IMG/VR virus record: IMGVR_UViG_3300021426_000003
Location: 103,151 to 149,019 of that record
Reading direction: 5' to 3' (one strand)
Length of the DNA: 45,869 nt
Origin: a virus
The first letter of the stretch is position 1. Each line of letters opens with the position of its first letter. Positions 9,094 through 28,643 of the stretch are shown here, in pieces. The notes under the pieces are model-generated. The model was not told the DNA's origin. It searched no databases and saw only the letters and a list, made by a program, of their open reading frames with translations. A program made the translations under genes and the position numbers.

Positions 9094-9160
9094 CGGGACA
9101 TTTACAGCAAATTTTTCTAAGCATTTTATCAGGGGTAAAACAAGCGAAAAAGATGTCCTG
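9094..9160 (+). ncRNA. ACAGCAA-motif small RNA copy 1
   Basis: CGGGACAT-TTACAGCAA...ATGTCCTG closing stem; inner hairpin TTTTA-TCAGGGG-TAAAA. Confidence 0.6.
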
Positions 9161-9174
9161 AAATAATAATTAAC

Positions 9175-9296
9175 ATTCATGTAGCTCAGTTGGGATGAGC
9201 ACCTGTTAAATTAAAATTCATCATTTTAGTGATGTTAACGGCATTGATTTTTCAAGTCCAAGCAGGGGGTCGTGAGTTCGAGCCTCACCATGAATG
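9175..9296 (+). ncRNA. tRNA(Asp-like) body with permuted ACAGCAA-like motif inserted in the anticodon arm
   Basis: Acceptor ATTCATG/CATGAAT, D and T arms intact; insert includes CATCAT-TTTA-GTGATG-TTAACGGCA. Confidence 0.6.
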
Positions 9297-9303
9297 TTAT
9301 ATG

Positions 9304-9419
9304 CCCCTCTTAGCTCAGATGGCTAGAGCGCTAGAAGTTGTCATTTATGTGACACAAACAGCAATTATTCTATCCCGCTGGTAACGGAGAGGTCGTAGGT
9401 TCGAATCCTACAGAGGGGC
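9304..9419 (+). ncRNA. tRNA-Thr(GGT)-like RNA with permuted ACAGCAA motif between D and anticodon arms
   Basis: Acceptor CCCCTCT/AGAGGGG; insert TGTCAT-TTAT-GTGACA-CAAACAGCAA; then CCG-CTGGTAA-CGG. Confidence 0.65.
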
Positions 9420-9423
9420 TTAA

Positions 9424-9486
9424 GGGATACATACAGCAAATATTTTTACATCAGACTTTTAATCTGGAATAGTAGAAAGTATCCTG
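9424..9486 (+). ncRNA. ACAGCAA-motif small RNA copy 2 displaying a Lys(TTT) anticodon stem-loop
   Basis: GGGATAC-ATACAGCAA...TCAGA-CTTTTAA-TCTGG...GTATCCTG. Confidence 0.65.
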
Positions 9487-9493
9487 TAAATAA

Positions 9494-9596
9494 TGTGATG
9501 CTTACAGCAAATATTCTGTAGGTAGTCAAGAGGATAAGACACTAGATTGATAATCTGGCAACACTGGTTCAAATCCAGTCCAACAAAAGCATCATG
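9494..9596 (+). ncRNA. ACAGCAA-motif RNA copy 3 enclosing a tRNA-Ile(GAT)-like body
   Basis: GTGATGC-TTACAGCAA...D arm, CTAGA-TTGATAA-TCTGG, ACTGG-TTCAAAT-CCAGT...GCATCAT. Confidence 0.65.
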
Positions 9597-9611
9597 AAAG
9601 GAGTAAAAGGA

Positions 9612-11114
9612 ATGAATTTTGCAGAAGCTATTAAAAATGAAACAAAATGGACAAGAACAGAGAATGGTGCAATTGCACTTAATACTACTGGCACTGCTTG
9701 TCTTGATTTGTTTGGAACAATTGGTGCTTTGAGAAAAGCAGACGAGGCTAGAATCACTTCTCTGTTTGAAGAAGCATACAAAGAAAATCCTCTTCTTACT
9801 ACAAAGATTCTCTTTTATGCAAGAGATATTAGAGGTGATAAAGAAACAACTGGTCTTGGTGAAAGAAGAGTATTTAGAATTATTCTTAAATATGCGGCTC
9901 TTCATCACCCTGAATGTATCAGACCTAATCTTGATTTGATTGGTGTATATGGAAGATATGATGACCTGTATGAATTGATTGGTACACCACTTGAAGATGA
10001 TATGTGGTCTGCTATGAAGAAACAGTTTGAAGAAGATAAGATTAATCTTGAAAAAGGTAATGTAATTTCTCTTCTTGCTAAATGGATTAAAACTGCTGAT
10101 GCTTCTTCTGAGAAGACTAGGAAGCTTGGTATAAAAACAGCTCTTAAACTTGGATATAATGTATTCGAGTTTAAGAGAATTGTAAGAGCGATGAGAAAGC
10201 ACCTTAGAGTTGTTGAGGGTCTTATGTCAACTAATCAGTGGGATAAGATTACATATTCTGAAGTACCTTCTAGAGCAATGATGATTTATAGAAATGCTTT
10301 TAAAAAGCATGATGCAGATAGATTTAATCAATTCGCTCAGAAAGCTGTAACTGGAGAAGTTAAGATTAATTCCACTACACTTTATCCTTATGACATTCTT
10401 GAGAAGTATAAAGGTCGAGGTTATGGGAATTATTATAGCGGTTCTAATCTGAATCAAACAGAAGAGAATATTCTTCAAGCACAATGGGATGCACTTCCTA
10501 ATTATGTTGAAGAAGGTACAAACGCAATTATAATTGCAGATACTTCTGGTTCTATGAGCGGTAGACCAATGGATACAGCAGTTAGTCTTGCGATTTATTT
10601 TGCACAAAGAAATACTGGCGCTTATCATAATCTTTGGATGAATTTTAGTTCTAGTCCTTCTTATCAAACGATTAAGGGTAAGACATTAAAGCAAATTCTT
10701 TCCAATATTGATTATGGCAATTGGTCTGGTTCAACAAATTGTGCAGCTGCTTTTGAACTTATTCTTAATACGGCTATTAAGAATCATGTGTCAGTTGATG
10801 AAATGCCTAAAAGTTTGATTATTGTATCTGATATGGAATTTGATTGGTGTGGTGGTCAGAACTGGACGTTTTATGAGGAAATGAGAGCAAGATTTGCTCA
10901 ATATGGATATGAAATTCCAACTGTTGTATTCTGGCAGGTTGATTCAAGACATGACACTTTTCATGCTGATGCAAGTCGCAAAGGCGTAGTTTTAGTAAGT
11001 GGACAGAGTACTGGTACTTTTAAGAATCTTATTGGTTCTGTTGGAATGAGTCCTACGGAATTCATGTATAAGTGTATTCTCAGTAAGAGATATGAACTTG
11101 TTACTGTTGAATAA
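9612..11114 (+). CDS. DUF2828 family protein (Ro60/TROVE-like + vWA domain)
   Basis: RTENGA, LDLF, ARDIRG..GLGER, YGRYDDL, LAKW, VPSRAM, LYPYDI motifs; MIDAS DTSGSM; SDMEFD. Confidence 0.85.
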   Translation: MNFAEAIKNETKWTRTENGAIALNTTGTACLDLFGTIGALRKADEARITSLFEEAYKENPLLTTKILFYARDIRGDKETTGLGERRVFRIILKYAALHHPECIRPNLDLIGVYGRYDDLYELIGTPLEDDMWSAMKKQFEEDKINLEKGNVISLLAKWIKTADASSEKTRKLGIKTALKLGYNVFEFKRIVRAMRKHLRVVEGLMSTNQWDKITYSEVPSRAMMIYRNAFKKHDADRFNQFAQKAVTGEVKINSTTLYPYDILEKYKGRGYGNYYSGSNLNQTEENILQAQWDALPNYVEEGTNAIIIADTSGSMSGRPMDTAVSLAIYFAQRNTGAYHNLWMNFSSSPSYQTIKGKTLKQILSNIDYGNWSGSTNCAAAFELILNTAIKNHVSVDEMPKSLIIVSDMEFDWCGGQNWTFYEEMRARFAQYGYEIPTVVFWQVDSRHDTFHADASRKGVVLVSGQSTGTFKNLIGSVGMSPTEFMYKCILSKRYELVTVE

Positions 11115-11343
11115 TATATTTGACCGACAAGGTCACCCTATATTTGAGGGTAATTAGTAATGTTTTTACCCTTAAATATAGGACTAAATCGTCTATAAAA
11201 GACGTTGGGTCATGATTGTGTCCTAGTACTGCAATAATACAAGAGTTATTACATTATGATACAAGTGAGCGAAAGGAAGTAAAAATATTTCGCAATTCAA
11301 AGAGACTAATACCTGTATTGGTCTGCCGTATACTCGGCAATCT

Positions 11344-11418
11344 GGACATGTAGCTCAGTTGGTTTAGAGCATACGGCTGTTAACCGTAGTGTCGTGAGTT
11401 CGAATCTCACCTTGTCCG
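11344..11418 (+). tRNA. tRNA-Asn(GTT)
   Basis: TACGG-CTGTTAA-CCGTA; canonical D and T arms. Confidence 0.9.
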
Positions 11419-11423
11419 TTTAT

Positions 11424-11507
11424 GGCGTAGTCGCTCAATTGGTGGAGCACCTGTCTTGAAAACAGGCAACCTGCAAGGGTATGTAGGTTCGAATCCTATC
11501 TGCGCCG
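11424..11507 (+). tRNA. tRNA-Ser(TGA)
   Basis: CCTGT-CTTGAAA-ACAGG; long variable arm. Confidence 0.88.
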
Positions 11508-11801
11508 TTTATAATTAAATTAATATCGTGGGCATCCCTTCTCGAATACTAATCTACAATATTAATTTAATTATTTCCGCAGAGTGGATGATGCGGTATA
11601 AAAGAAATCGACCATCCTGTGTGAGTAGGAGATATGAAATGTGAATCTGGCTACACACAGTGAGTCCTAAAGCCCCTGATGTAAATGGGACTATGCGTGA
11701 ACTGATACTGTCCAAATATCCAGACAAGATTCTTAATAGCCCTTCTGGAGGCACAGTTGTAAAACACATCTGAGAACGCTAGGCAAAAGGCAAAATTAAA
11801 T

Positions 11802-11917
11802 ACCGTGATGGCGAGAATAGGTAGACGCTAGGCTTGGTGAGGTATGCATTATAGAAGACGAATGATATTAAGTTACCATGGGCATATCATGTAAGGTGCA
11901 AATCCTTGCTCACGGTA
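11802..11917 (+). ncRNA. tRNA-like RNA with expanded central region and no clear anticodon
   Basis: Acceptor ACCGTGA/TCACGGT; Leu-type D arm; T arm GTAAGG-TGCAAAT-CCTTGC. Confidence 0.5.
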
Positions 11918-12072
11918 TTATCAGCTAAAGAGGTTTCGGTGTAACCCCGTGTAATTCTCTCCTACCAAAATCCCGACTGGAGATATCCTCAGAAAATCAA
12001 ATTAGCTTATCTTGGGGATATGATAAGTAATGTCTGTAACAATTTTATAAGCTGTTTTGTGTTACAGAATAT

Positions 12073-12156
12073 GCACCCGTGACGTAACAGGCAACCGTGG
12101 CAGACTTAAAATCTGCTCCTCATAAGAGGGTGAGGGTTCGATTCCCTTCGGGTGTA
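12073..12156 (+). tRNA. tRNA-Leu(TAA)
   Basis: GCAGA-CTTAAAA-TCTGC; variable arm; discriminator A. Confidence 0.9.
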
Positions 12157-12255
12157 CTTAATTGAACCTTGCAGTGGAGGTTGTAAGAATTAAAGAATTT
12201 AATGCTTTATTCTTAATTCATGAGTTAGGAAGCTGCCTCTAAACCAATAAAGCAT

Positions 12256-12311
12256 GGGATACAAACAGCAATACATTCCAAAAAAGACTTGAAATCTTTC
12301 ACCAAATGGTT
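12256..12311 (+). ncRNA. ACAGCAA-motif RNA copy 4 with Ser(TGA) anticodon loop, running into the CRISPR array
   Basis: GGGATAC-AAACAGCAA...AAAGA-CTTGAAA-TCTTT; the expected GTATCCTG strand is absent. Confidence 0.55.
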
Positions 12312-12537
12312 ATTTTGGATATCTGTTAATTTTAAGTGCTATAAAACTTTAACAAGACTCATTATATAAGTTTTGGATATCTGTTTTTTTTAAGTGTTCT
12401 AAAACAAAAAATGCCGATTGGTTACGGAATGGTTAGTTTTGGATATCTGTTAATTTTAAGTACTCTAAAACCCTCACAGGTTTTGACAGCAAGCCTCTGG
12501 AGTTTTGGATATCTGTTAATTTTAAGTACTCTAAAAC
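12312..12537 (+). CRISPR. CRISPR mini-array: 4 x 36-nt repeats, spacers 22/30/30 nt
   Basis: Consensus GTTTTGGATATCTGTTAATTTTAAGTACTCTAAAAC at 12312, 12370, 12436, 12502; last two identical, first two degenerate. Confidence 0.92.
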
Positions 12538-12561
12538 CTCAAATATTTAAAACACTTAAAA

Positions 12562-12790
12562 GTTTTAGACCACTTAAAATTTAGGAGTAAATCAAAAATA
12601 GAATAAGACATTAAGTTGTCTACGTTATCAAGAGATAATATCTTACTGTGTAACTCTAGCAGTAATCATATCGCTGAAGTTTAAACATCCATGACTCCTT
12701 GAACAGTAACGTGGAAGTGACAAAGCATTAAAGACTTTTGATAACTTTTTCGAAGAGTATTACCGTCCTTGAGACGAGACAAAATTTTAA
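12562..12790 (+). ncRNA. anti-repeat plus omegaRNA scaffold of CRISPR-associated IscB
   Basis: 12562-12597 GTTTTAGACCACTTAAAATTTAGGAGTAAATCAAAA is an imperfect reverse complement of the repeat; GTTATCAAGAG (12624) pairs with CTTTTGATAAC (12735); CTACGTTA and TTAAACA omegaRNA-like motifs; 3' end approximate. Confidence 0.8.
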
Positions 12791-12798
12791 AGGATTAA

Positions 12799-14349
12799 AT
12801 GAAATATTTAGATTATACGTTTGTAGTTGATAATAATAATGTTCCATGTATGCCAGTAACAAATAATGAAGCTGGCTATTTAATAAGATGTGGTTTGGCA
12901 AAAGTAATAAATCATGACCCATTTGTGATTCAACGACTTGACGATTACATTTCTGAATCAGAAATCAGAGATGAAATCACAATGAAGATGGATATGGGAT
13001 ATATGAATGTAGGTTTTTCTGTTGGAACGAAAGACCATGAATATCTATCAGGTCAAGTTAAATTACTTAATGGAATATCGGAAAGACTTGAACAAAGAGC
13101 AAGTTATCGCAGAACACGAAGGGGCAGAATACGTTATAGAAAAAATAAGAATGTGGATTATAAGACAATTCATAATCCGACATACAAGAATGGGAATGAA
13201 GATAATTGGATTGCGCCATCGGTTCAGCACAAGATAGATTCGCACGTTCGCCTTTACAGGAAAATCGCATCATGGATTCCAATTGATAAAATTATTATTG
13301 AAATTGCCAACTTTGATATACAAGCTATTAAGGCATTAAAGGATGGCAAAGAAATATCTGGAGTTGATTATCAACGAGGTGAAATGTATGGATTTGAAAA
13401 TGTAAAACAATATGTTAGAGAACGTGATAATTATACTTGTCAAATTTGTGAGACAGATACTATAAAAAAGGGGACTGGACTTGAAGTACATCATATTATT
13501 CCAAGGTCACAGGGTGGAAGTAACAAGCCGTCAAATTTAATTTCTTTATGTAAAAAATGTCATAACAAAGTGCATTCAAATAATAATAACAATAAATATT
13601 TTCATGAATTACAAACAAGAAAAATTAATGACACTTATAAAGATGCTACATTTATGAATACATCTAGATGGCGCATTTATGAAAGTATAGGAAGTAAATG
13701 TCCAACTTATATTTCCTATGGTTATATTACAAGTTTAAATCGTAAAACAAATAATCTTCCTAAATTTCATTATGTTGATGCAGCTTGTATTCAGAAATTT
13801 ACATATAAAACTTTAACAAAAAATATTTATCTTGTTGAACAAAAAAGATGTAACGACAGATGTATGTCTACTTTTTGGGATGCAAAATATATTGATAATC
13901 GTGATGGTAAAGAAAAGAAGGGCAGTGAATTATCATATAAAAGATTACCAAGCGCGACATCTAAGCGCACAACAAGAAAAGAAGATGTAGAAAATGATAG
14001 AGTTTATAGACAAAGAAAAACAAAAAAAGGAGAATTTAGATTTGTTTGTAATTCACGGTGCTTAAAAGCTGGTGATTTAATCCGCATTAATATTGGTAAA
14101 AGAAAAGGCATTATTGGAGAAGTTACAAATAGTCAAATAGAAAGAAATAAGTATAAAGTACGTTTTACTTATGATGGTCAAGATGTAAAATATCCATCTA
14201 TTTCTATTTCGAAAGATGAATATAATATATTGAAAGAAACAGGAAAATGTGATAGTATAAGTATTGTTCGTACTAGAAGAGGAATGATTTGGAGAAAATA
14301 CGACAGAGCGAAATACGAATCTGAAAATGTAGACCAGTATTCTTCGTAA
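12799..14349 (+). CDS. iscB: IscB RNA-guided endonuclease (OMEGA), CRISPR-associated
   Basis: PLMP-like PCMP; RuvC-I MDMGYMNVG; bridge helix RASYRRTRRGRIRYRK; WIAPS; RuvC-II IEIANFD; HNH RDNYTCQIC...HHIIPRSQGGSNKPSNLISLCKKCH; RuvC-III HYVDAACI. Confidence 0.93.
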   Translation: MKYLDYTFVVDNNNVPCMPVTNNEAGYLIRCGLAKVINHDPFVIQRLDDYISESEIRDEITMKMDMGYMNVGFSVGTKDHEYLSGQVKLLNGISERLEQRASYRRTRRGRIRYRKNKNVDYKTIHNPTYKNGNEDNWIAPSVQHKIDSHVRLYRKIASWIPIDKIIIEIANFDIQAIKALKDGKEISGVDYQRGEMYGFENVKQYVRERDNYTCQICETDTIKKGTGLEVHHIIPRSQGGSNKPSNLISLCKKCHNKVHSNNNNNKYFHELQTRKINDTYKDATFMNTSRWRIYESIGSKCPTYISYGYITSLNRKTNNLPKFHYVDAACIQKFTYKTLTKNIYLVEQKRCNDRCMSTFWDAKYIDNRDGKEKKGSELSYKRLPSATSKRTTRKEDVENDRVYRQRKTKKGEFRFVCNSRCLKAGDLIRINIGKRKGIIGEVTNSQIERNKYKVRFTYDGQDVKYPSISISKDEYNILKETGKCDSISIVRTRRGMIWRKYDRAKYESENVDQYSS

Positions 14350-14382
14350 AATTTTCTTTTAAAAGTCAAATGAATAATCAAT

Positions 14383-14447
14383 TGGGACACTTACAGCAAA
14401 TTTTTACAAGCACATTCTTTGAAAATGTATACTTATTATGTGTCCTG
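14383..14447 (+). ncRNA. ACAGCAA-motif RNA copy 5 with Gln(TTG) anticodon loop
   Basis: GGGACAC-TTACAGCAA...ACATT-CTTTGAA-AATGT...GTGTCCTG. Confidence 0.65.
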
Positions 14448-14450
14448 TAT

Positions 14451-14525
14451 GGGAAGTTAGCAAACATGGTTGTTCGGCGCTGGACTGAAAATCCAGTCAA
14501 CTTGGTTCGATTCCAAGACTTCCCA
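14451..14525 (+). tRNA. tRNA-Phe(GAA)
   Basis: CTGGA-CTGAAAA-TCCAG; acceptor GGGAAGT/ACTTCCC; weak D stem. Confidence 0.8.
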
Positions 14526-14544
14526 GTTTTATATAATAATATAT

Positions 14545-14628
14545 GGGTAGGTATGCCTAGCGGCGAAGGCGGCGGACTGTAAATCCGTTACAAAAGAAAC
14601 ACCGAAGGTTCGATTCCTTCCCTGCCCA
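14545..14628 (+). tRNA. tRNA-Tyr(GTA)
   Basis: GCGGA-CTGTAAA-TCCGT; variable arm. Confidence 0.9.
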
Positions 14629-14636
14629 TTAAATTT

Positions 14637-14708
14637 CTGGGTGTGGTGCAATAGTAGCATGCATGATTTGGGTTCATGTGGTTGCAGGTGCAAGTCCTGT
14701 CACTCAGA
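14637..14708 (+). tRNA. tRNA-Pro(TGG)
   Basis: CATGA-TTTGGGT-TCATG; atypical T-loop TGCAAGT. Confidence 0.8.
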
Positions 14709-14710
14709 TT

Positions 14711-14812
14711 GGCAATGTGGTGTAAGTACAGTGTACGGGTTATGGGAAAAGCACACTGGATAAGAGCGCTCATTATTAATCCAGAGGATATGGTTCGAAT
14801 CCATACATTGCA
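14711..14812 (+). ncRNA. tRNA-like RNA with enlarged D and anticodon loops
   Basis: GCAATG/CATTGC acceptor; CTGGA/TCCAG stem; TATGG-TTCGAAT-CCATA. Confidence 0.5.
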
Positions 14813-14847
14813 ATTGGGTTTCTTCCTAATCTTATTATTTTTGTATT

Positions 14848-14919
14848 TGGGATACTAACAGCAATTATTTTACATCGCCAAATCTAAATTAGCACTTGAT
14901 GTAGGTGCAGAGTATCCTG
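14848..14919 (+). ncRNA. ACAGCAA-motif RNA copy 6
   Basis: GGGATACT-AACAGCAA...ACATC/GATGT inner stem...AGTATCCTG. Confidence 0.6.
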
Positions 14920-15658: not shown

Positions 15659-15732
15659 GGGGCGTTAGCACAACGGTTTGCGTGCAGGTGGCTTATACCC
15701 ATCCGATAAAAGTTCGACTCTTTTACGCCCTA
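15659..15732 (+). tRNA. tRNA-Ile(TAT)
   Basis: GGTGG-CTTATAC-CCATC; acceptor GGGGCGT/ACGCCCT. Confidence 0.8.
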
Positions 15733-16001: not shown

Positions 16002-16042
16002 TTAATGGTTGTATTGCTAACAGCCATTACATTAAATAAAGT

Positions 16043-16120
16043 AGTAAAATGGTGTAATATAGGGGCACAAAACTTAAGAAGATTTGAGTTTAAGAGCAGG
16101 TTCGATTCCTGCTTTTACTA
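16043..16120 (+). ncRNA. tRNA-like RNA with enlarged anticodon loop
   Basis: AGTAAAA/TTTTACT acceptor; GCAGG-TTCGATT-CCTGC. Confidence 0.5.
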
Positions 16121-16164
16121 TATATTTTTTATATTAATTAAAGAAAGGGGGATTAAAATGAGAT

Positions 16165-25183: not shown

Positions 25184-27680
25184 ATGTTTAGTTGTCACGG
25201 GCATACATGTCATAGCAATTATCGACTCAGGGATTCAATTATCAGAGTCCCTGATTTTATTACAAGACATAAAGAATTAGGATTTTCTGGTTGTGTCTTA
25301 ACCGAGCACGAAAGTTTGGGCAGCCATCTTGAAGCTGAAAAATTCTTTGAAAAATTAAAAGATACACCAGAATATGAAGGATTTAAAGTAGGATTTGGAA
25401 ATGAGATTTATTTATGTCCAGATTATGTAACAGCAGAAAATGTTGGACATAATATATATCCTCATTTTATTTTAATTGCACTTGATGCGTTAGGTCATAA
25501 AGCATTGCGAGAATTAAGTACTATTGCTTGGACTAAAAATTCTTTTTATTCGATGATGTATAGAGTTCCTACATATTATTCCGACCTTGAAGAAATACTT
25601 GATAAATATAAAGGTCATTTAGTTGGCTCTTCGGCTTGTCTTGGAGGAAGTATTCCTAGAAAACTACTTGAATATCGTTCTATTGAAAACATAGATGTAA
25701 TCCAAGCTGAAACACTTTGGAGACAGATTAAAGAATGGATTGAATATATGGTTGAAATATTTGGTGAAGGATATTTCTTTTTAGAGATGCAACCAAATTC
25801 TCATGAAGACCAGATATATGTTAATAAATGTTTATATAAATTATCTCAAGAAACTAATGTTCCTTTTATAATTACATTTGATGAGCATTATCTTAAAAAA
25901 GAAGATAGAGATATTCACAGGGCTTATTTGAAAGCGTCAGATGGTGATAGAGAAGTCGATGAATTCTATGCCAGTACTTATATAATGACCGAAGAAGAAG
26001 TTCATGAATATATGGACGATTATCTTGGTTCAGATGTAGTGCAACAAGGTATGGATAATACAATGCTTATATATGATAAAGTACAATATTATTCATTAAA
26101 AAAGGAATTACAGATTCCTTATTTACCATTTGATTTATCTGAACCTGATGAAGATTTATTTAATAAATATAAAGATAAAATTGAATTATTAGATTATTTT
26201 TACCATTCTGAATATCCATCTGATAGACATATGACGAGAGAGCTTCTTAAATCATTAGAAAAGAATGCTCATTATCAATGTCAAAGAGGGTATGATGCAA
26301 TTCAAGAATGTTTATCTTCAATTAAGATTTCATCAGAAGCTAATAAGGTTAGATGGTCTGCTTATCTAATGCAAGTCAGAGATTATGTTAATATTGCATG
26401 GGAATCTGATAGTATTGTTGCACCATCAAGAGGTTCTGGTGGAGGATTTTGTTTACTTTATTTATTAGATATTATTCAACTTGACCCTCTTCGAGAAAAT
26501 ACTAAAATGTATCCTTGGCGTTTCCTTAATCCAGAACGTGTTAGCGTACTTGATATTGATACAGATGTTGAAGCTGCTAAACGTGAATCAATTATTCGTA
26601 AGATTAAAGAAACCTATGGTTATAATAAAGTATCAAAAGTGTGTACTCTTCAGACAGAAAAAAGCAGAAGTGCAATTTTAACAGCAGCTAGAGCATTAGA
26701 TATTGATAATGATACAGCTTCTTATATAGCTTCATTGGTTGTATTTGATAGAGGTCAACCTAGAGATTTGCATACCATGTATTATGGTAATGAAGATTAT
26801 GCTCCAGTTTTCGAATTTGTTCGAGAAATGGATGCAAGACCAGAATTGTGGGAAGTATCTCAAAAGATTGAAGGATTAATAAGCGGTATCGGCTCTCATG
26901 CAGGTGGTGTTATTATTGATGACAAACCATTAACAGAATCAACTGCACTAATGAGAACTAATTCTGGTGATATTATTACACAATTTAATCTTCATGATTG
27001 TGAAGATGCAGGATTAATTAAAATAGATTTGCTTGCAACTGATGCTTTAAATTTTATTCACGCTACATTAAATCTTTTATTAAAAAATAATGAAATTGAA
27101 TGGCAAGGTAATCTTAAAGAAACTTATAATAAATATTTAGGTATTTATAATATTGATAGAGCCGCTCCTAAGATGTGGGATATGATTGCTAAACATAAAA
27201 TTATTAATCTATTTCAAATGGAGAAGGATAGTGGTAAAAGGGCATTAGCTTTAGTCAAGCCACATTCGGTTGATGATTTAGCTACTATTAATTCAGTTAT
27301 TCGTCTTATGGCTCAAGAAAAAGGTGCTGAAACACCTCTTGAAAAATATGCTAGATTCCATGATAATATTCAGCTCTGGTATGATGAAATGACTGAATAT
27401 GGATTAACAGATGAAGAACAAAATATATTAAAAGATATTTTGGGAATATCTTGTGGCATTTGTGAAGCACAAGAATATCTTATTTTGTTGACAATGCATC
27501 CTAAAATTGGTGGTTTTAGCTTGAAATGGGCTGACCAACTTAGGAAAGCAGTGGCAAAAAAATCACCTAAAGATTTTGATAAATTGGAAAAAGAATTTTT
27601 TCAAAATATGAAAGATAAAAATCTCTCAGAGAATCTATGTAAATATGTCTGGTATGTTTTGATATATACACAGCGTGGCT
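25184..27680 (+). CDS. dnaE: DNA polymerase III alpha, exon 1
   Basis: PHP domain H.H...S...D, TEHE; RGSGGG; DIDTD; HAGG; KIDLL; ends ...TQRG + T. Confidence 0.9.
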
Positions 27681-28643
27681 AAAACTGTGGTCACGATAAA
27701 TTCGGTGAACGTATGCAAAAACGGTGTATAGTAAAATACTATGCTAACGGTATCAGTTATATATATAAATACGCTGACTAAGAGAACCTATGGTCTCAAA
27801 AGAGATAGCAGGTAATACCGTGCCAAGCCTTTATAAAGGAAGGTGTAACGACTATTATGTACATCTGAGATTAGCACAGATGGAAGCGCCGAATAGAGTT
27901 GGTTGCTTAGAAAGTGGATATATATGGATATAAAATATAATAGAGAAAATTTGGAATGGAGACCTGTTGTGGGTCTAGAAGGAAAATATGAGGTATCAAA
28001 TTACGGAGATATTCATAGATTAGAAAGAAAAGCTCCATCAGGAAATGGTGGATATCGTATATTAACAGACCATGTTTTTTGGGCTGAAGAACAAAAAGAA
28101 TATGGCGGTTGTGACCCTAATAATAGATATTTAGGAATTCATATATCTAAAAAATTAGGTAAAATGTATATTCATCGTATTGCAGCCAAAGCTTTTTGTC
28201 CGAATCCTGATAATAAGCCAGAAGTAAATCATATTGATGGTAATCACAAAAATAATTATTGTGGTTGTAAGAAAAATAATTATAAAGATAGTAATTTGGA
28301 ATGGGTATACCATTCTGAAAATATGAAACATGCTTCTGAAAATAATTTAATAAATAGAGATAGTGAGTTAAGGAAATTAAGGAGCAAAGAAAATCACTAT
28401 ATAAAACGTCCAGTAATTCAATTAGATTTAGAAGGAAATATAATAAATAAATATGAAAATGCAACTGAAGCTCGTAAACAATTAGGGTATATTTCTAATA
28501 ATTGTATTAACAGAGTATGTCGTGGAGAACGAAAAAGTTATAAAGGTTTTAGATGGCAATATGTGGATGAATAAAAAAGAGCAACCAACTCTAAAGAGAT
28601 AGTCTAGTCCCCTAACAAATATCGGGAAACCGAGGGTACATCA
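27681..28643 (+). mobile_element. group I intron with homing endonuclease in P8
   Basis: P1 CGTGGCT/GGTCACG with U.G; P7 GACTA/TAGTC; TAGAGTTGGTTGCT/AGCAACCAACTCTA brackets the ORF; splicing restores RGYGFNKAH. Confidence 0.85.
27924..28574 (+). CDS. intron-encoded NUMOD4-HNH homing endonuclease
   Basis: EWRPVVGLEGKYEVSNYG; HRIAA.AF.PNP....EVNHIDGN..NN....NLEW; NUMOD1-like C-terminus. Confidence 0.85.
   Translation: MDIKYNRENLEWRPVVGLEGKYEVSNYGDIHRLERKAPSGNGGYRILTDHVFWAEEQKEYGGCDPNNRYLGIHISKKLGKMYIHRIAAKAFCPNPDNKPEVNHIDGNHKNNYCGCKKNNYKDSNLEWVYHSENMKHASENNLINRDSELRKLRSKENHYIKRPVIQLDLEGNIINKYENATEARKQLGYISNNCINRVCRGERKSYKGFRWQYVDE

Follow-up and report, generated by a model that had tools for sequence, protein, structure and literature searches.

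A phage-borne CRISPR-associated IscB locus with spacers matching a mobile restriction-carrying island of Lachnospiraceae

CRISPR-associated IscB proteins are presumed to represent a step between transposon-encoded IscB and Cas9. In one such system, DelIscB, the published account describes an upstream noncoding RNA with spacers, repeats and an anti-repeat, and a short target-adjacent motif (TAM), NAC (PMC12660989). Our literature search, which left out the 2021 discovery paper (Altae-Tran et al.), found no report of natural targets or of a phage role for CRISPR-IscB. Phage-encoded, adaptive CRISPR immunity is known from the lytic Vibrio cholerae phage ICP1, whose class 1, type I-F system includes its own Cas1 and Cas2-3 and is directed against PLE, a chromosomal mobile element (PMC6452262). 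Group 1 type II-A arrays grow at a leader end reading ATTTGAG/GTTT, which is essential for adaptation (PMC5382924).

The locus described here lies in a stretch of 45,869 nucleotides (‘the window’; positions 103,151 to 149,019 of IMG/VR record IMGVR_UViG_3300021426_000003) belonging to a rumen phage with a complete, circular genome of 149 kb (ends overlapping by 127 bp). It sits within a tRNA cluster and comprises the following features, in window coordinates:

12312..12537, plus strand: CRISPR mini-array of four 36-nt repeats (starts 12312, 12370, 12436, 12502) with spacers of 22, 30 and 30 nt
12348..12369, plus strand: spacer 1, 22 nt, old and shortened, in common with L001
12406..12435, plus strand: spacer 2, 30 nt, matching 26/30 to L131:829-858 (3' flank CGT) in the arm-repeat/integrase-upstream region of the tRNA-Cys island form
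12472..12501, plus strand: spacer 3, 30 nt, newest and scaffold-proximal, matching 29/30 to hsdR of a mobile hsdRMS island
12538..12544, minus strand: type II-A leader end in reverse orientation, with ATTTGAG abutting GTTTT of repeat 4, the probable insertion site for host Cas1-Cas2-Csn2
12562..12597, plus strand: anti-repeat, predicted to pair in cis with repeat 4 (core 12562-12581 with 12518-12537)
12599..12763, plus strand: omegaRNA/HEARO-like scaffold (Rfam RF02033, full-length, E 1.9e-8; 51.7 bits, where the gathering score is 83)
12799..14349, plus strand: iscB, 516 aa (NF040563, 289.6 bits against a cut-off of 175; Pfam RRXRR, PF14239, and HNH, PF01844)

The closest PDB matches of the predicted effector are IscBs. 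All catalytic residues are present (RuvC D65, E168, H324 and D327; HNH H231, N246 and H255), these RuvC/HNH residues are invariant in 13 aligned homologues from a clade at 51-88% identity, and the N-terminus has a motif of the PLMP type, in the form PCMP at residues 16-19. The complete 149-kb genome encodes no TnpA (Y1, PF01797), the transposase of IS200/IS605-type elements, and no Cas1 or Cas2; the type II-A gene set is absent, the effector being IscB. The wider clade of phage IscBs comprises at least 40 protein clusters (50-91% identity) and has an array in every locus long enough to read; related phages retain the same layout of repeat-spacer array, anti-repeat and scaffold. Judged by its architecture, a repeat-spacer array and anti-repeat joined to a scaffold, the locus is CRISPR-associated IscB and a member of that group. 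A promoter scan gave results at chance level, and the RNA runs contained only diverged relatives of the phage (as contigs), making them uninformative on transcription of this locus.

A gene with a GmrSD domain (569 aa) lies immediately upstream of the CRISPR-IscB array in sister phages (L016:208-1917, L027:1591-3300). A DUF2828/vWA (Ro60-like) gene is found at window positions 9594-11114, among tRNAs and repeated ACAGCAA motifs (9094-14919), and a gene of this kind also adjoins iscB in L115-L117. ARAGORN predicts tRNA-Ile(TAT) (15659-15732) and tRNA-Leu(AAG) (16042-16121), both with anticodons unusual for bacteria, and members of the cluster containing the DNA polymerase III alpha gene (25184-27682) are between 460 and 1704 aa long, a spread that points to introns or inteins present to varying extents.

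The initial annotation of this DNA had described spacer 3 as GC-rich and as reading LTGFDSKPL, and had recognized in it the LTGFD motif of the type I restriction subunit HsdR. Both observations are borne out: frame 2 yields this peptide, the GC content is 53% (31.5% for the phage genome, in which only 2.0% of 30-mers reach such a value), and the likeness to hsdR extends to the DNA. When metagenome contigs were scanned for exact 25-nt matches, two were found, one an array copy (L029) and the other a true protospacer (L028:11124-11153), which matches at 29/30 positions with the 5'-most base as sole mismatch, and which lies inside an hsdR ORF (TIGR00348, 412 bits, cut-off 285) reading ...LTGFDSKPLDVLYVD. 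A second hsdR allele (L030, L125-L130), likewise from the rumen, also matches at 29/30, its single mismatch being synonymous and 6 nt from the 3' end, on the TAM side. IscBs use ∼13-16 nt adjoining the TAM (PMC13180657), and the L028 allele therefore has a perfect working seed. The search revealed no 30/30 hsdR allele with a TAM. Escape mutation at the target was considered and set aside: the two alleles encode proteins that are 96% identical yet differ by 14% over hsdR, so that synonymous changes prove nothing. Exact scans of viral contigs and GTDB species representatives with spacer 3 returned nothing, BLAST against plasmids and phages gave chance matches only (E 2-8), and the phage genome holds no second match. 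Spacer 1 yielded no target, and neither the array repeat, spacer 2 nor one sister-phage spacer was found in viral contigs.

Because LTGFDSK is kept in most HsdR homologues, a feature that inflates DNA similarity, the match might have arisen by chance through a conserved protein motif. Among 80 hsdR homologues from genome collections, however, the next best has 4 mismatches to spacer 3 (mode 6-10), and even those encoding the identical peptide (L031-L034) differ at 6-8 bases, so that motif conservation alone does not account for the match. The last two bases of spacer 3 fit an unusual Asp after KPL that marks the target hsdR clade. Independent spacers matching the same element, and an attachment site common to phage and island (both described below), likewise speak against coincidence; a chance match is in practice already refuted, and we give it next to no credence.

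The target hsdR heads a complete hsdR-hsdM-hsdS operon (921, 518 and 416 aa; PADLOC REase_I, MTase_I and Specificity_I) that adjoins a tyrosine integrase and is followed by genes for ERF, DUF4313 and a large LRR/choline-binding surface protein. These genes form an integrative island of ∼18 kb, ∼30% of which is hsdRMS, observed in integrated, absent and excised states. Downstream of an identical host PBP1A, six contigs have an empty site (tRNA-Thr(GGT), yigZ, mgtE) and four have int-hsdRMS. In L129 the att junction is that of the excised island, its core being the 3' portion of the tRNA, and the contig ends join collinearly within one gene, giving a circle of ∼18.3 kb. The target hsdR is thus on a mobile integrative island and not in the core chromosome. 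Of the possibilities raised for a guide against a restriction gene, the one that stands is an hsdR on a competing element; a core gene of the host is not what was found.

Other forms of the island occur elsewhere: that in L131 is at tRNA-Cys, and that in L028, with the allele whose 3' seed is perfect, lies beside a different, Tn916-like int/xis. The tRNA-Thr form has the allele with one mismatch 6 nt from the TAM. In its integrase, att site, excised circle and size the island fits the description of phage satellites (7-20 kb), and no packaging-hijack or capsid genes were recognized on it by Pfam; neither mobilisation genes nor dependence on a phage came to light. Searches of viral contigs and plasmids found no relative of the island helicase. 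In 86 host-genus representatives, none of the helicase, the island ERF and the target hsdR clade was found; these genomes are mostly MAGs, so that the result shows only non-core status. Among islands with identical HsdR (L125-L135), hsdS varies in length from 400 to 416 aa, consistent with specificity shuffling. A second island at the same tRNA-Thr(GGT) (L176:1614-7947, genome G462) has an integrase that is ∼71% identical and an MmeI-type IIG restriction-modification (R-M) gene, with no type I system.

By the identity of TypA encoded near it (75-78% to Lachnospiraceae, 48-64% to others), the island is assigned to a Lachnospiraceae host. L030 is labelled ‘Bacteroidales RUG12352’, but this was not accepted as evidence for the host, since the same island adjoins genes with Lachnospiraceae-like TypA; mis-binning is the likely origin of the label.

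The phage leads to the same host by a separate route. Its attP (phage genome 731-857, outside the window; L141:700-960) aligns over 127 bp with the host promoter of tRNA-Thr(GGT) and with 60 nt at the 5' end of that gene (90.6% identity in L125, 94% in genome G415), and one island form inserts at this same Lachnospiraceae tRNA gene, the island carrying its 3' part and the phage its 5' part. The two integrases are 52% identical and both are flanked by GGTAAYCA arm repeats. On the strength of the attP match and the related integrases, which are independent of the spacer evidence, we classify the phage as temperate, as infecting this Lachnospiraceae genus, and as using the attachment site of one island form. 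Phage DNA was best represented in runs from animal guts, including several from cattle or sheep; in two 400-genome samples of Lachnospiraceae, the host was not found at strict cut-offs.

The att cores of phage and island overlap in the T-arm, and tandem integration would be possible; no genome was seen to contain both. The product of an LRR gene near the phage integrase (genome 3448-4890) and the LRR/choline-binding protein of the island (L129:14447-18268) share 52% identity across 190 aa, a likeness that hints at module exchange between them.

Island loci were gathered through hsdR only, and therefore provide an unbiased test for the remaining spacers. Spacers vary between relatives: the arrays together contain 52 distinct ones, eight of which match one island family. 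Six of the 49 other spacers match somewhere in 140 kb of island DNA with ≤5 mismatches (one spacer at 30/30), whereas shuffled controls gave 0/490 at ≤7 mismatches and the real spacers had no match under 7 mismatches in 774 kb of other hsdR loci; one further spacer matches the island with a single mismatch across the 14 nt at its 3' end. The eight targets, among them that of spacer 2 (26/30, upstream of the tRNA-Cys integrase), fall in the integrase, a resolvase, ERF (twice), a 100-aa ORF, an intergenic stretch, the integrase-upstream region and hsdR. All island matches come from a close clade (IscB at least 87% identical), and for the arrays of more distant relatives (L003, L012) the search turned up no convincing target. 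The array of L027 has strongly degenerate repeats with differing ends, yet two of its spacers match the L028 island.

A 3' NGT adjoins five of the eight targets, both hsdR alleles included, against a GT background of 0.053; this corresponds to a probability of ∼2e-5 before allowing for the post-hoc choice of motif, and three targets are without NGT. The 5' flanks of the eight targets have no common motif. NGT is thus a candidate TAM. The flank of the array itself on this side is GTT, and no combination of seed and NGT occurs in the phage genome. The check proposed with the initial annotation, for a near-perfect hsdR protospacer with a consistent 3' motif, hence came out positive, and the motif is common to other targets.

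These targets bear on what the guide is for. Dedicated RNA-guided anti-restriction would mean that spacer 3 is kept because hsdR is cut or silenced while hsdM/hsdS methylation is left, which would aid phage infection of R-M-positive hosts. Its target does fall within a conserved helicase motif of full-length HsdR; spacer 3 is identical in L110-L113 and in phage strains from two further studies, remaining unchanged across all three studies although iscB differs by ∼2%; the phage has no PF01555 or PF00145 methylase for self-protection; and the MmeI-type system at the same tRNA marks such islands as defence carriers. However, only one of the eight island-matching spacers lies in hsdRMS, which makes up nearly a third of the island; HsdR protein that the cell already contains would act on entering DNA before the phage nuclease is made; and intact catalytic residues make plain repression unlikely. 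We consider this explanation unlikely, and less likely than adaptive anti-island immunity. Because hsdR is on a mobile island and seven of the eight spacers target it outside R-M genes, the spacer 3 guide is read as directed against the element itself and not against restriction in particular, and the interpretation first offered for it is partly supported. The anti-defence function first proposed for the guide would accordingly be a likely consequence, not a demonstrated purpose.

The order of spacers in the arrays points to how they are gained. Worn repeats and spacers common to relatives are distal, and new ones are proximal; in the phage array, the two repeats flanking spacer 3 (12436-12471, 12502-12537) are identical, and the two distal ones have 3-4 changes. 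The reversed leader end lies in the 24-nt loop between repeat 4 and the anti-repeat. WTTTGAG occupies this junction in most related phage arrays, and host-genus type II-A arrays (L178-L181) have the same junction and the same 66-nt period and 36/30-nt geometry; Csn2 was present in five of 86 host-genus genomes. The reversed leader end suggests borrowed host spacer acquisition, in which host Cas1-Cas2-Csn2 would extend the array from its reversed end, so that every new spacer would come to lie directly at the scaffold to which it is fused. Among 51 host type II-A spacers, there was no match to phage or island. Use of the array on the minus strand by host Cas9 was rejected, there being no common flank on that side.

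Such an origin also fits a passive record, with host type II-A proteins writing island fragments through the leader motif and IscB no longer defending the phage. The match of motif and geometry to host arrays would be expected in that case, as would the worn repeats and shortened spacers in several arrays, but three observations make it very improbable. The common motif is 3' in omegaRNA orientation, opposite the PAM side expected of host Cas9 given the reversed leader, so that NGT would reflect IscB, through spacer choice or later selection; the active-site residues are invariant across a clade as diverged as that aligned here; and the spacers concentrate on one element family.

We consider it probable that the locus is an adaptive, phage-borne CRISPR-IscB directed against a small integrative island family of the phage's Lachnospiraceae host. 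New spacers would enter at the repeat next to the scaffold, probably through host type II-A adaptation proteins acting in trans; a transcript of spacer, repeat, anti-repeat and omegaRNA would load IscB, which would cut island DNA beside a 3' NGT-like TAM. Spacer 3 would by chance have been taken from the island hsdR, where IscB carrying it would cut. The likely effect is that the island is blocked or cured, most plausibly as an incoming or excised circle, in the lysogen or at induction, since HsdR would act before IscB is made and a break in an integrated island endangers the lysogen. The phage would gain the exclusion of a rival, possibly a parasite, for its tRNA-Thr(GGT) att site, with the loss of type I restriction from the host pool as a by-product. 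More tentatively, and with some doubt, the locus can be read as a Cas9 ancestor turned into a full adaptive counter-defence that lacks adaptation genes: a reversed host type II-A leader end would be hidden in the omegaRNA loop, host Cas1-Cas2-Csn2 would write guides into the active position, IscB would set the TAM, and guides deleting restriction-carrying att-site rivals would amount to RNA-programmed anti-restriction.

Each of the known systems is matched in part. Like phage satellites and defence islands, the target island is small, bears an integrase, encodes a helicase-like protein and has defence cargo that can be exchanged (type I R-M here, an MmeI type in another host genome), but unlike them it has no identified capsid or packaging-hijack genes and encodes ERF, DUF4313 and a large LRR/choline-binding protein (PMC9122126). 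With group 1 type II-A arrays the phage array has in common 36-nt repeats, 30-nt spacers and ATTTGAG/GTTT at the growing end; in contrast to them, its junction is on the strand opposite the guide RNA, within the repeat:anti-repeat loop, and cas9, cas1 and cas2 are lacking (PMC5382924).

Like the ICP1 system, the locus is phage-encoded and apparently adaptive, with several spacers against a chromosomal mobile element with anti-phage potential, but it relies on a single 516-aa Cas9 ancestor without adaptation genes, in a temperate phage that has the attachment site of the island (PMC6452262); the island is at most a candidate satellite. With this locus, the ICP1/PLE paradigm would come to include a single-protein class 2 precursor, and gut Lachnospiraceae as hosts. 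The locus resembles DelIscB in its upstream spacers, repeats and anti-repeat and in its short TAM (NGT, as predicted), and differs in being carried by a temperate phage, in a tRNA cluster, with natural targets identified (PMC12660989). The clade offers compact nucleases, possibly with a relaxed TAM, and the phage locus suggests a concrete role for CRISPR-associated IscB in element-versus-element conflict, one in which the targets are named, a short TAM can be predicted and a way of acquiring spacers in trans is visible.
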